A stretch of DNA of 45,219 nt from a virus (Duplodnaviria > Heunggongvirae > Uroviricota > Caudoviricetes). Under the pieces are notes generated by a model, which was given only the letters and a program-made list of their open reading frames with translations, did no database searches and was not told the DNA's origin. Below are positions 16,398 to 24,721 of the stretch, piece by piece (the first letter of the stretch is position 1; each line of letters opens with the position of its first letter). Position numbers and translations under genes: made by a program. The stretch lies in the IMG/VR virus record IMGVR_UViG_2721755646_000014. The stretch is one strand, 5' to 3'.

Positions 16398-16742
16398 TTA
16401 CACCGTGACCTGAAACTCCAGGGTTGCACGGTAACAGCGGTTTTCCGGAATATAGTCCTGCATTTCACTGACGGATCCCGGGGCCAGCAGCATTATGGCT
16501 TCACGGGCGTCCTGACGTATCTGACGCGCCTGCGTCACAGTCCCGGCATAAACGTCTATCTGCACCGACACTGAGGACTCCGCCTGCCCGCCCATCACGT
16601 CCGCCGACACCGATGAAATCAGGCTGAAAACCACCCACGGAAGCGCCACCGACGGCCTGCCATCCAGCAGGGGGACCACATACGGGTACACCTGCCCGCC
16701 GGCAAGATGCGCCAGATGAGGATACAAATCCGCCTCCGTCAT
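16398..16742 (-). CDS. gp11-like (DUF3168) head-tail completion protein
   Basis: 114-aa ORF in the expected position downstream of the gp10-like gene; family call from memory. Confidence 0.6.
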   Translation of the reverse strand: MTEADLYPHLAHLAGGQVYPYVVPLLDGRPSVALPWVVFSLISSVSADVMGGQAESSVSVQIDVYAGTVTQARQIRQDAREAIMLLAPGSVSEMQDYIPENRCYRATLEFQVTV

Positions 16743-17185
16743 CGTCTCAGTACCTCATCAATGGCCCGGTTCATCCGAGCAATCGCCACCTGTGCCGCCT
16801 GTTCACTGCGCACATCAAATGCCGGGCGCACAAACGGGTGCGGTGGCATATTCACGGTCCCCATTTCCACAAACCGCCAGTAGAAAGCATTGCGCGGGTT
16901 ATCCGCCTTCATGGTGTTATCGCTGTTACCGGTGTCCGGATTAACACCCCGGATATGCACACCGGATTCCATCCCGCCATCGCGGGAGCACCGGGAAAGG
17001 ACCACCACATTGCGGCGAAGTTTTCCCCTGCGTACCGGTGCCCGTGACACCACTTCTTCTTTCAGCACATTCGCACCCGCACGGGTTGCCTCACGCAGCA
17101 CCCGGTTATTTTCCGCACCACTCAGAAGCTGCAAATCGCGGCTGATGTCCTCCAGCCCCGAAAAATCCAGCAGGGTTTCGATCAT
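16739..17185 (-). CDS. HK97 gp10-like head-tail protein
   Basis: 148-aa ORF (MIETLLDFSGLEDISRDLQLLSGAENNRVLREATRAGANVLKEEVVSRAPVRRGKLRR…); 4-bp overlap with neighbours. Confidence 0.6.
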   Translation of the reverse strand: MIETLLDFSGLEDISRDLQLLSGAENNRVLREATRAGANVLKEEVVSRAPVRRGKLRRNVVVLSRCSRDGGMESGVHIRGVNPDTGNSDNTMKADNPRNAFYWRFVEMGTVNMPPHPFVRPAFDVRSEQAAQVAIARMNRAIDEVLRR

Positions 17186-17532
17186 TTTTCCCCTCCCAGC
17201 CGACAGAGAATTTCCAGACGCCCGCCGGTTGCATCCGGAACCGGGACCCCGACGACATTCAGGACATGGTCACGCCAGGGACCACTCAGCACATGAAGTC
17301 GTGACGCCGCCGTGATTTCACGACCAGACTGACCGCGTACCCAGATGCGGATTTCCGCCTGCGCCATTTCCGCACCGGACTGCATCCGCTCCCGGCTGCT
17401 CCTGCCCCGGATATCCGCATGAATTTTCCCGCATGACACCCATTCTTCCGTCATTTCTCCGGCAGCATTACGGGTTAACACCGGGTTCAGAACACTGATC
17501 ATCTGTGTCAGACGACCTGCAGATATTGCCAT
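17182..17532 (-). CDS. Head-tail adaptor / head closure protein
   Basis: 116-aa ORF (MAISAGRLTQMISVLNPVLTRNAAGEMTEEWVSCGKIHADIR…) in conserved order. Confidence 0.6.
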   Translation of the reverse strand: MAISAGRLTQMISVLNPVLTRNAAGEMTEEWVSCGKIHADIRGRSSRERMQSGAEMAQAEIRIWVRGQSGREITAASRLHVLSGPWRDHVLNVVGVPVPDATGGRLEILCRLGGEK

Positions 17533-17541
17533 TCCCCCTCC

Positions 17542-17868
17542 TCATAACACCGTCGGACAACGCAAATCGTAAATCAGCACGGAAACAGAAAACGGCAGTT
17601 CCCCCTGCACGAGGTCTTCCCGCTCAGCAAGATCCGGATTCCGGTACAGCATCCCGGTCAGTCGCATGGCAGCCCCCTTCATCCGGGTTAATGCCTCACC
17701 AGGGATCAGCTCACCGTCCTCACTAATCACTTTATCCCGGCTGCCCTGGATGTAGGCCAGCAGCACGGCGGTAGCCTGACGAACCTTGTCCATCAGCATC
17801 TCATCATCCGCGTCATGGTCAACACGCAGATGTGCCTTGATTTCTTCCAGTGTCAGTAATGCTGTCAC
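17542..17868 (-). CDS. gp6-like head-tail connector protein
   Basis: 108-aa ORF (MTALLTLEEIKAHLRVDHDADDEMLMDKVRQATAVLLAYIQ…) downstream of the portal/repeat gene. Confidence 0.6.
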   Translation of the reverse strand: MTALLTLEEIKAHLRVDHDADDEMLMDKVRQATAVLLAYIQGSRDKVISEDGELIPGEALTRMKGAAMRLTGMLYRNPDLAEREDLVQGELPFSVSVLIYDLRCPTVL

Positions 17869-17947
17869 TTTCCACCTCCTGCATCCCGCCCACGTTTTGC
17901 AGCCAGAGTCCAGCCTGATGAATGAGCTTCTCCGGGCTTATCACCGG

Positions 17948-22436: not shown

Positions 22437-22451
22437 ATCAGCCTCCTGAAA

Positions 22452-22474
22452 ATAAAAAAACCGCCGCAGCGGTT
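22452..22474 (-). terminator. Putative rho-independent terminator after the terminase large subunit gene
   Basis: Minus strand reads aaccgctgcggcggttttttt (GC hairpin followed by a T-run) between the terminase stop and the protease RBS. Confidence 0.45.
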
Positions 22475-22499
22475 CATGATGGTTACAGTGTGAACAGGG

Positions 22500-24161
22500 T
22501 TATATGAAAAAAACCGCATATTCTTTCTTTTTCGGTTCCGGGTTAAGGGACATCAGGGAGACCGCATTGAACAGCGCCATCAGCGGGTCAATTTTTCCCC
22601 GTCCACTGGCCTGTTTGGTGATAAGAATGGCGTTACCTTTAGGCTCCACCCGGGCATTGCCGACACACCAGGCCATCAGGGGCTGGTCACCATGCACCAG
22701 CACCCCTTCAGCCAGTTTGCGCTCGGTGGTTTTAATGGCCCCGCCCAGTTTCCAGCCCTGGCTTATCCCCACCACAATTCCGTCGGGGATCCCGGCTTCC
22801 GCCAGTGAATCCAGAATCTGCCCCACCCCTGACGGGTCAATACCGATATGGTCCAGTAACTCAGCCTCATGAATGCGACGCACATATTCCGCCACTTCCG
22901 CCGTGTCATCCCCGACACGCCGGACAATGGTCATATCTCCACAGGCAACAAGATCCTGAAACCGGGACGCCTCGCTCTTCCGTCGGACCACCGCGGTTTC
23001 ATGCGCCCAGGCATGGCCCCAGCCCAGCCATTCGCGGGTTTCCCTGTCACGGCCAATCACGTACATTCCCAGCAGATCATCCAGGCCCCCGCCGTCAATC
23101 CCCACCGTCACCACATCAGCGCGCTGCAGGATATCGTCCAGGCTGACGCGCCTGCCCTGCTGCTCCCAGAAATCCGCACCCGCCCAGCGGTCAGAACGCA
23201 GGGCAAGACCAATTTCCACATTGGCATGTTTTGACATGAAGCCACGAAATGCTTCCTCACCAGCCTCCCGGGCTTTACGGTACTCCCGGTACAGAAAAGC
23301 CTCATCCACCGAATAACCGAGATTCGGGTTAACCATGGCGAGGTTTTCCATCAGCAGGTGAGCCCCGCTTTCCACCATTTCAGGAGGATGCTCAAAAATC
23401 ACCGGCAGAAAGTGCGGATCATGAATTTTGCCGTCACGGACATCCCGGGCGTACTGCAGTTTCTGTCTGAACACCCCGGCTGGCGGCTCATTCGACTGGG
23501 TGGTCGTATACACCACAAACCCTTCCGGGCGGGAGGCAAGGCCGCCTATGGCTTCACGTAACATGTCCTCCGCTTTGTACTGCTTGCCAAATAACCACAG
23601 TTCATCAATCAGCGTCCCCACGGACTTGATACCGGATACCGTATTCGGATCGGCAGCCACCACCTTCAGGGTGGTGTCCGTCACCCTGTGGGTGATGGTC
23701 CGGATATGTGTCTGCACCTGACAGAGGTCATCCAGATCATCGTCCCGTCGTACCATATCCCTGGCAGGGTTGAAGGCGTTAGCCGCCACCTCCACGGTCG
23801 GGGCCAGAATGGTGTAGCCCGCCGCCTGCCGCCAGTTCAGTAACAGCGCCGTCATCATGATCCCGGCAGCCAGCGTGGACTTGCTGTTTTTCTTGGGGAT
23901 AAGGATAAAAACTTCCTTGATATGGCGTACACCGGTCTGCGCATCGTAGGAGCCAAACAGGGCCGCCACCAGGTCAAACACCCACTGTGCGCAGGACTCC
24001 CCGAACGTCGGGCTGCCCGGTGCATCCACAATCCGCAGTTGTTTAAAAATCGCCAGGGCATGTGCGGCCTGCTCCGGATAAATCGGAGCCGGAATAATCG
24101 ACAGCCCCTTTTTCAGGCGCTCTGCCCAGTCCGGGCAGGCCGTGCTCCACACAGGTATCAT
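22500..24161 (-). CDS. Terminase large subunit
   Basis: 553-aa intact ORF; 4-bp overlap with the upstream small-subunit gene; identification by sequence recall and position. Confidence 0.8.
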   Translation of the reverse strand: MIPVWSTACPDWAERLKKGLSIIPAPIYPEQAAHALAIFKQLRIVDAPGSPTFGESCAQWVFDLVAALFGSYDAQTGVRHIKEVFILIPKKNSKSTLAAGIMMTALLLNWRQAAGYTILAPTVEVAANAFNPARDMVRRDDDLDDLCQVQTHIRTITHRVTDTTLKVVAADPNTVSGIKSVGTLIDELWLFGKQYKAEDMLREAIGGLASRPEGFVVYTTTQSNEPPAGVFRQKLQYARDVRDGKIHDPHFLPVIFEHPPEMVESGAHLLMENLAMVNPNLGYSVDEAFLYREYRKAREAGEEAFRGFMSKHANVEIGLALRSDRWAGADFWEQQGRRVSLDDILQRADVVTVGIDGGGLDDLLGMYVIGRDRETREWLGWGHAWAHETAVVRRKSEASRFQDLVACGDMTIVRRVGDDTAEVAEYVRRIHEAELLDHIGIDPSGVGQILDSLAEAGIPDGIVVGISQGWKLGGAIKTTERKLAEGVLVHGDQPLMAWCVGNARVEPKGNAILITKQASGRGKIDPLMALFNAVSLMSLNPEPKKKEYAVFFI

Positions 24162-24721
24162 CCGTTGCCCTCATTATCATTATTCACCACCAGGCGGGGT
24201 GGTGGTGGCACCGCAAAACGGTTAGCCGCTTTTTTCGCCGCGTCACCTTTTGCCGATTTTTTACCGGCATCCCCTTTTTTGTGGTGCGTGAACTGCGCCA
24301 GCTTATAAGCCGCATCCAGCGCCAGCCTGGGGTCGGTATTAATGTTCTCCACCAGAAGACGCCCCATCGCTTTCACCGGATCGGGAAGACCGTCCTCCAT
24401 ATACTCAATACCAGGAGATATCACCACGGGCGGTGGCATCTCCGGATTTGTTTCGTCCGGCTGTGGTATTGCAGCCGCCTCACGGCGACGGGGTTTATCC
24501 TCCTGCTCTGATTTTTTCTGCCGGTAAACAGGAACCTCATCCACCTCCACCGTCTCGCATTGTTTACGGGCTATAAACGCAAGCACCTCAGGATCTTTTG
24601 CCAGCTGCGAGCCTTTAACCCTGGCGGTCTTCGCCGAATAACCGGCGGCAATGGCTGACGCTGTTTTGTTTTTCCCGGACATGAGCGCCAGCGCAAATTT
24701 TCGTTTTTGCGTTGTCAGCAC
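24158..24721 (-). CDS. Terminase small subunit
   Basis: 187-aa ORF directly upstream of and overlapping the large subunit; basic, Lys/Ala-rich C-terminus. Confidence 0.65.
   Translation of the reverse strand: MLTTQKRKFALALMSGKNKTASAIAAGYSAKTARVKGSQLAKDPEVLAFIARKQCETVEVDEVPVYRQKKSEQEDKPRRREAAAIPQPDETNPEMPPPVVISPGIEYMEDGLPDPVKAMGRLLVENINTDPRLALDAAYKLAQFTHHKKGDAGKKSAKGDAAKKAANRFAVPPPPRLVVNNDNEGNG

Follow-up and report, generated by a model that had tools for sequence, protein, structure and literature searches.

A protease-capsid fusion with a candidate internal start and a portal joined through a G-run in a known head module of Escherichia coli O157 prophages

When two pairs of neighbouring phage head genes appear joined into single open reading frames (ORFs), and in an unusual order, does this reflect the biology of a lineage or errors of an assembly? 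The question is raised by IMG/VR record IMGVR_UViG_2721755646_000014 (Caudoviricetes), whose full stretch of 45,219 nucleotides (nt) is called here the window; all coordinates are window positions, and the head module in question occupies 16398-24721, with all of its genes on the minus strand (Table 1). There, a 645-amino-acid (aa) ORF joins an S78 prohead protease to the major capsid protein, and a 779-aa ORF joins the portal to a repeat-bearing product that we call X. An earlier note on this DNA described the arrangement and suspected homopolymer artefacts behind the joined frames. Our best explanation as a whole, to which we give a probability of about 0.8, is that the module is a known, catalogued head block of the long-tailed lambdoid prophages that enterohaemorrhagic E. 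coli (EHEC) carries, of the phage 2851 / BP-4795 / YYZ-2008 type, with the protease-capsid fusion as its normal state and the fused portal as a derived allele. Only two points are fresh: comparison of relatives makes a strong case that the protease-capsid gene has an internal start, and the fused portal is traced to a G-run.

Order of the head genes and the protease-capsid fusion

The usual synteny of phage head genes is terminase-portal-protease-scaffold-capsid (PMC5513430). Instead of the canonical TerL, portal, protease, capsid, the window holds TerL, protease-capsid, a 73-aa ORF and portal, within a minus-strand order that runs TerS, TerL, protease-capsid, 73-aa ORF, portal, X and connectors. 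The earlier note had given this same order and called it non-canonical, and the ORF list, the family scans and the published synteny agree with it on both counts; its wording of a "single copy" was also correct, the copy described being the clean one of a tandem pair. The identity of the portal, which the note wished to see confirmed by profile searches, is that of a true HK97-type portal (PF04860, E 5e-81; TIGR01537, 349.7 bits against a cut-off of 112).

This order extends well beyond E. coli. A scan of one genome per species gave 28 loci encoding full-length relatives, spanning Gamma-, Alpha- and Betaproteobacteria, with protein identities of 67-77% in Enterobacterales, 57% in Proteus and 47-52% in Rhizobium, Methylobacterium, Haematobacter, Brucella and Diaphorobacter. 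In all 28, as far as the genes were detected, TerL, protease-capsid and portal follow one another in this order, with TerS ahead of TerL and usually X and Ad1 behind. A small ORF is present in most Enterobacterales, where the 73-aa ORF finds a tblastn match at the equivalent position in most loci, and small ORFs are annotated there in Pseudomonas phage PAJU2, Burkholderia phage vB_SBP39 and BP-4795. These three phages and 2851 also share the order of TerL, protease-capsid and portal, and two metagenome contigs read TerL, fused gene, small ORF, portal. In vB_SBP39 the order is kept, but protease and capsid are separate genes and X is missing. Relatives with exactly this order and a separate protease stop, which the earlier note had named as evidence that would count against its account, do therefore exist, but only as rare and distant ones (vB_SBP39 and two of the 28 loci, L027 and L028); the order is accordingly a family trait, and the fusion its common state. 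These comparisons indicate that a portal placed after the capsid is a trait of a large HK97-like lineage. A literature search for this gene order returned only general statements on synteny and a note on fused genes in Arthrobacter phages, considered below.

The fused ORF consists of an S78 protease (about residues 1-170), a variable linker (171-192) and a delta or scaffold-like helical region followed by an HK97-fold capsid (193-645). The capsid part is recognised by PF05065 (E 5e-14, residues 386-635) and TIGR01554 (E 6e-22 at 204-584, 78.3 bits against a cut-off of 27.5), and the protease part by PF04586 (34.7 bits against 21), with TIGR01543 staying under its cut-off there (46.4 bits against 59). 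As a whole, residues 1-639 align with positions 7-626 of the 626 in phrog_617 (E 3e-261), which places the protein in a lineage of fusions, and tblastn with the fused protein covers 100% of the query in PAJU2, FSL SP-016, 2851 and BP-4795. The NCBIfam model NF045541, "prohead protease/major capsid protein fusion protein", aligned only with residues 48-287 and scored 54 bits against a cut-off of 525; judged by this profile, it is an analogous fusion family, different from the window's. Pfam showed Peptidase_S78 and no ClpP or S49 domain, so that an N-terminal domain of the Gifsy-2 type was not found, and a PDB profile search with the fused protein gave one weak capsid match, 9d9w, with no close relative solved.

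Is the fusion itself an artefact? The junction reads ACC GTT TTT CAT AAG GAA AAG ACC ATA ATG, exactly as the earlier note had quoted it: one more T would give TCA TAA, that is, a stop followed by AAGGAA and an ATG. One T could then have been lost from a run of six, the true protease ending at TAA with a ribosome-binding site and a capsid start behind it, and the left part of the window does hold many homopolymer deletions. Against this, T5 occurs in 97 IMG/VR stretches and T6 in no IMG/VR contig; the clean copy is 100% identical to strain 180-PT54; and the protein cluster of the 645-aa product has 9,916 member sequences. The ORF is uninterrupted in all of the 28 loci except the two with separate genes and L026, a degraded Arsenophonus copy. 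Among more divergent relatives, sought in a library of 50%-identity cluster representatives (1,181 matches at E <1e-30, of which the best 150 were inspected), 141 of these best 150 are fused, with alignments that take in the protease region as well as that of the capsid. Proteus and the Alpha- and Betaproteobacteria have full-length fused homologues of 47-57% identity, and fusions with wholly different linkers are found across three proteobacterial classes. Finally, GenBank records of the Sanger era annotate the fusion, PAJU2 as "prohead protease fused capsid protein" and BP-4795 as "putative major head protein/prohead protease". On these comparative data the homopolymer artefact suspected by the earlier note is rejected, its chance being negligible, and the protease-capsid fusion is, as far as sequences can tell, real, old and the normal state of the lineage.

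A candidate internal start in the fused gene

If no stop has been broken, what does the resemblance of the junction to a gene boundary mean? Methionine 193, which the AAGGAA motif precedes by 9 nt, is invariant in the alignment, while the preceding 12 residues or so vary in sequence and length. Nearly all relatives carry GGAG, AAGGA or AAAGGA upstream of the aligned start, PAJU2 having AGGAGGG and ATG at the internal position. The codon phase of the motif varies (AAG GAA in the window, AAA GGA in most relatives, GAG GTA in one), which points to selection for the nucleotide sequence and not for the residues it encodes. A methionine is found in the start segment of 130 of the 141 fused representatives, and most of the exceptions are valines; all seven of those looked up are encoded by GTG, each with GGAG or AAAGGA upstream, an outcome with a chance of about 1e-3 given each gene's own valine codon usage.

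Relatives in which the two parts are separate point to the same residue. Five capsid-only relatives (P0321, P0350, P0373, P0376 and P0388) start at the equivalent of M193, and in the two separate-gene loci the boundary, either an ATGA overlap or TAA, GGAGG and ATG, falls exactly at this position. In TIGR01554, which models the HK97 capsid from its first residues, profile position 3 corresponds to residue 204. A candidate in-frame internal start of the lambda C/Nu3 kind, with its own ribosome-binding site and conserved in relatives, is what was found, and this reading of the junction is to be preferred to that of a broken stop. The impression of the earlier note that this junction and that of the portal resemble former gene boundaries fits with these observations.

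A simpler possibility is that the gene makes only a full-length polyprotein, with protease and capsid at 1:1 as in a tripartite gene of the Gifsy-2 type, the conserved methionine and purine codons being a relic or a need of the protein. The stronger Shine-Dalgarno sequence at the main start agrees with it, as do the fused protease-capsid genes of unrelated phages, namely those of Arthrobacter clusters AM, AU and AN and of Rhodococcus RRH1, which come without a pointer to internal starts (PMC5513430). However, a relic would not be expected to outlast divergence to 40-50% identity within a freely varying linker, nor does a protein-level need sit well with a motif that is kept in different codon phases and encodes different amino acids. 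With every non-methionine case checked being GTG, and capsid-only relatives beginning exactly there, we consider exclusive full-length synthesis improbable.

Several points nevertheless weigh against an internal start of real consequence. The Shine-Dalgarno sequence of the upstream start is the stronger one (AGGAGG, -9 to -12 kcal/mol, against about -5.6 kcal/mol for the internal one), so the full-length form may dominate, and by Shine-Dalgarno energy the internal site ranks only in about the top 10% of codon positions. A precedent, Gifsy-2, reportedly manages with its protein fully fused. That initiation takes place at the internal site, and in what proportion the two products would be made, are inferences from sequence. 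The main start itself is GTG in the window (22434-22436) and ATG in the 18 relatives checked, all behind a similar Shine-Dalgarno of the AGGAGG type. A pattern of weak main and strong internal starts had been expected and was dropped in view of the stronger main signal. A programmed frameshift at the T5 run, which would release free protease, was likewise rejected, relatives having no slippery run there.

Our suggestion, towards which we lean by a small degree, is that nesting may be obligatory for the fused genes of this lineage: a conserved internal ATG or GTG, served by a Shine-Dalgarno of its own, would determine what proportion of the capsid subunits bears a protease and what proportion is plain. 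A lesser addition is a portal toggled by a G5/G6 run. What is observed is how the domains are arranged and that the start signals are conserved; from this, one gene would give two products, a full-length protease-delta-capsid and an internally started delta-capsid. In the former, the protease would sit covalently on the inward-facing N-terminus of the capsid protein and would be carried into the prohead with no separate targeting signal, while the 453-aa product from M193 would provide ordinary subunits that lack the protease. Once the prohead is assembled, the protease would cut off the delta domains as well as itself, as happens in HK97.

In function, such a gene would come closest to lambda C/Nu3 and herpesvirus UL26/UL26.5, where an in-frame internal start supplies a protease-free partner and the protease, tethered to scaffold, is packaged. 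Gifsy-2 reportedly has a tripartite ClpP-scaffold-capsid gene. The window differs from all three in its S78 protease, in place of lambda C, assemblin and a ClpP-like enzyme, respectively. Its presumed nested product would moreover be the capsid itself with its delta domain, unlike the separate scaffold of lambda and herpesviruses, and it is known from sequence alone. Maturation protease and major capsid also share one gene, noted as unusual, in Arthrobacter clusters AM, AU and AN and in Rhodococcus RRH1, with little or no sequence similarity between the AM/AU and the AN fusions (PMC5513430). These phages have Actinobacteria as hosts, and their likeness to the window is one of description.

The portal, gene X and two G-runs

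The second joined frame has a different history. In the other genera examined, the portal ends in ...KAMLRG(L/F)LTK* and X begins with MNERELS..., the two genes overlapping by ATGA. The same overlap is seen in BP-4795, Stx2_EH1846 and Lys8385Vzw, which have a separate 454-aa portal and an X of 245-461 aa; Lys8385Vzw reads AGGGGGATA, with five Gs, and its portal ends in ...RGILRK*. The window and vB_EcoS-705R7 read AGGGGGGATA, with six, and the frame continues through the junction peptide ...AMFRGDTEKMTER... into X. The run lies 11 nt upstream of the in-frame ATG at 18923-18925 and some 20 nt before the ancestral portal stop. Among IMG/VR matches at this junction, G6 is found in 40 of 91 and G5 in 51 of 91. 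Phage 2851 has a fused portal-X of 859 aa, which suggests that the fusion is tolerated, and fused portals form a protein cluster of 6,387 members. From these alignments, the portal fusion is a derived, true and widespread allele that goes back to one G5-to-G6 change.

A second run lies near the 3' end of the fused frame, where relatives have G7 and the window G6; the resulting frame shift ends the ORF 80 nt short of Ad1. This explains why the Prokaryotic Genome Annotation Pipeline (PGAP) flags the identical gene of 180-PT54 as "frameshifted". On our reading, an extra G would have fused the ancestral portal to X, and a G missing from the G7 run would then have truncated the fused ORF in this lineage.

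Both differences are single bases in runs of 5 to 7 G, deletions of the long-read type occur elsewhere in the window, and its noisy left copy has a deletion at both runs, so that the fusion and the truncation could be sequencing errors. For the fusion this is countered by the G6 junction in 40 of the 91 matches, which come from many isolate genomes, and by its presence in 2851, in vB_EcoS-705R7 and in the large fused cluster. The 3' G6 is rarer (4 of 60 IMG/VR matches), yet 180-PT54, with its 100% identity throughout the region, shares it, and there are several further O157 genomes of at least 99.8% identity. A shared long-read undercall at this 3' run may still be involved, since long reads may underlie the assemblies of several identical genomes, and this is a point against our account of the truncation. 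Taking the two runs together, we regard sequencing error as unlikely. The homopolymer suspicion of the earlier note was thus right in that a single extra G in a G5 run causes the portal fusion, and wrong in that this is a widespread allele and no assembly error.

The run before the portal stop could also be a contingency (phase-variable) or recoding site, at which free portal and X alternate with the fusion. Both lengths are common on one flanking haplotype (C and A at two variable positions; 38 G6 and 24 G5), and isolated Shiga toxin (Stx) phages show both, 2851 being fused and BP-4795 separate. Runs of 5-6 G are, however, short for high-rate slippage, and other genera have no homopolymer there, so no conserved device is in sight; one or two mutations spread by recombination among EHEC prophages explain the pattern equally well. 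A dedicated switch is therefore very unlikely in our estimation, and we keep to the derived allele.

Gene X itself adjoins the portal from Enterobacterales to Alpha- and Betaproteobacteria. Its product has an N-terminal helical region, repeats around the motif P-x-P-x-DG(K/R) and a beta-rich C-terminal domain. In E. coli relatives the copy number of the repeat varies, giving X proteins of 245-461 aa and fused portals of 723-959 aa, which is the probable reason why so many portals at contig ends are entered as "partial" in public assemblies. Pfam gave sub-threshold CBM_5_12 matches to the C-terminal end in five of five homologues, an NCBIfam scan of X had no match, and a PDB profile search found only low-complexity helical matches. 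A search for homologues of X returned almost only fused or partial E. coli portals, with no informative names, and two single-sequence AlphaFold models were of low confidence (predicted local distance difference test, pLDDT, 41 and 39).

A known module in a partly noisy window

Where does the module come from? E. coli O157 strain 180-PT54 is 100% identical to it over 8,324 nt, with ordinary lambda-like tail genes after the block, and several further O157 genomes reach identities of at least 99.8%. At least 80% of the region is covered in 398 complete E. coli genomes and 53 phage records, and dozens of records of Stx1a-, Stx2c- and Stx2a-converting phages match the 8.3-kb block at 95-98% nucleotide identity. 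Phage 2851 of the Pankowvirus type has near-identical DNA over the whole block, a likeness that concerns the module only. By these matches the region is a known EHEC prophage head module, already annotated.

Table 1. Head-module features in the window.
Feature	Position	Strand	Basis
TerS, 187 aa	24158..24721	-	PF03592 E 1.7e-8; phrog_641 E 1e-68
TerL, 553 aa	22500..24161	-	PF03354 and PF20441; phrog_9, phrog_7622
Terminator-like hairpin and T-run, between TerL stop and AGGAGG of the protease-capsid gene	22458..22475	-	Terminator scan
S78 protease-capsid ORF, 645 aa, GTG start	20499..22436	-	PF04586 at 48-152; PF05065 at 386-635; phrog_617
T5 run suspected of homopolymer error	21879..21883	-	T5 in 97 IMG/VR stretches
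AAGGAA Shine-Dalgarno-like motif, 9 nt before internal ATG	21870..21875	-	Sequence
Putative nested ORF, delta and capsid, 453 aa, ATG (M193) at 21858-21860	20499..21860	-	Conservation; translation inferred
GC-rich hairpin right after capsid stop, GGAGG on 5' side	20464..20483	-	Sequence, folding
73-aa ORF, function unknown, 3' end overlapping portal start	20233..20454	-	phrog_829 E 4e-39
Portal and X ORF, 779 aa	17948..20287	-	PF04860 at residues 54-382, then about 325 residues including 54-aa repeats
Portal proper, residues 1-454 of the 779-aa ORF	18926..20287	-	PF04860 E 5e-81; TIGR01537 E 1.6e-104; separate 454-aa gene in BP-4795, Stx2_EH1846, Lys8385Vzw
G6 run (G5 in other allele); extra G removes portal stop and fuses portal to X in frame	18937..18942	-	G5/G6 alignment
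Gene X, here fused to portal; ancestral ATG 18923-18925	17948..18925	-	Separate gene with ATGA overlap in all other genera examined
162-nt (54-aa, itself about 2 x 27 aa) tandem repeat in X, 2.7 copies	18330..18760	-	Tandem Repeats Finder
3' G6 run (G7 in relatives); frame shift, ORF ends at 17948, 80 nt short of Ad1	17974..17979	-	Alignment with L030, L031, L032
Head-tail adaptor Ad1 (gp6-like connector)	17542..17868	-	PF05135; phrog_40
Head closure protein Hc1	17182..17532	-	PF05521; phrog_25
HK97 gp10-like neck/tail-completion protein	16739..17185	-	PF04883; phrog_5
gp17-like tail completion/tail terminator protein	16398..16742	-	PF11367; phrog_347

Within EHEC phages, 2851 (Pankowvirus; the Stx2c prototype), YYZ-2008, JLK-2012 and Stx2_EH1904 share the module and its order at 95-100% nucleotide identity. 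Phage 2851 resembles the window in a 645-aa protein that is 99.8% identical and in its fused portal-X, while the window differs from this group in having fewer 54-aa repeats and a 3' G6 instead of G7, hence the ORF of 779 aa. BP-4795 (Stx1; genus Marienburgvirus), Stx2_EH1846 and Lys8385Vzw have the order and the 645-aa protein of the window, but their portal (454 aa) and X are separate, with a 4-nt overlap and the G5 allele. Further away, ORF003 of PAJU2 is 48% identical to the fused protein over its full length, and the order of terminase, fused gene, small ORFs, portal, X-like ORF007 and adaptor is like the window's; PAJU2 differs in host and genus, in its separate portal and X-like genes and in having two small ORFs before the portal rather than one. 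With the HK97 module (TerS, TerL, portal, protease, capsid, gp6) the window shares the families of the portal, the S78 protease, the capsid with its N-terminal delta, Ad1, Hc1 and the gp10-like protein; unlike HK97, it has the portal after the capsid, protease and capsid in one ORF, and the extra X between portal and Ad1.

Two hairpins flank the protease-capsid gene. The position of the hairpin and T-run ahead of it is kept, with changed stems, in Enterobacterales, Proteus, PAJU2 and a metagenome contig, and it could be an attenuator or a stabiliser of mRNA ends. After the capsid stop (about 20464-20492, minus strand), the sequence AAGGAGGA comes first, followed by a GC-rich hairpin and, after 9 nt, by the ATG of the 73-aa ORF. 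Folding predicts such a hairpin, with differing stems, in most of 27 related loci, and Enterobacterales retain GGAG(G) on its 5' side; it may bring the parts of a split ribosome-binding site close together, or act as an attenuator that lowers expression of the portal relative to the capsid. Another terminator-like hairpin with a T-run lies at 16359-16377 (minus strand), between the gp17 gene and the gene for the major tail subunit.

The left part of the window is of another quality. Positions 9299-16268 are a tandem duplicate of 16265-23338, that is, of most of the head module, with no substitutions by BLAST and 65 deletion events between the copies, all in the left one; 46 are homopolymer contractions, and each long ORF of the left copy is destroyed. 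This copy looks like unpolished, deletion-noised sequence with a false join, not like a biological duplication. Positions 1-9309 match the IS2 / espN / nleL / C40-peptidase region of another O157 prophage (strain 611), with 2 mismatches and 105 bases missing in the window, noise of the same deletion type that marks the left copy. From 16263 on to the right, the sequence is clean, with 12 mismatches and one gap over 9.3 kb against 180-PT54.

Knowledge of the element itself is unchanged by these results, and their first consequences are for annotation. The 645-aa "major capsid protein" should stay one gene, with no "repair" into two, and a portal placed after the capsid is normal for this lineage, whereas the variable "frameshifted" and "partial" portal calls of EHEC genomes arise from the two G-runs and from the 162-nt repeat in the gene after the portal. 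The conserved internal start offers a testable hypothesis for how fused protease-capsid genes could control the dosage of protease. If it is true, the nested gene would be the counterpart, in the HK97 world, of lambda C/Nu3 and UL26/UL26.5, and our literature search found no description of an internal start in such fused genes. If the corresponding proposal for the portal is true, the length of a G5/G6 run would decide whether the E. coli portal is free or fused to X, in Stx phages that are otherwise viable.

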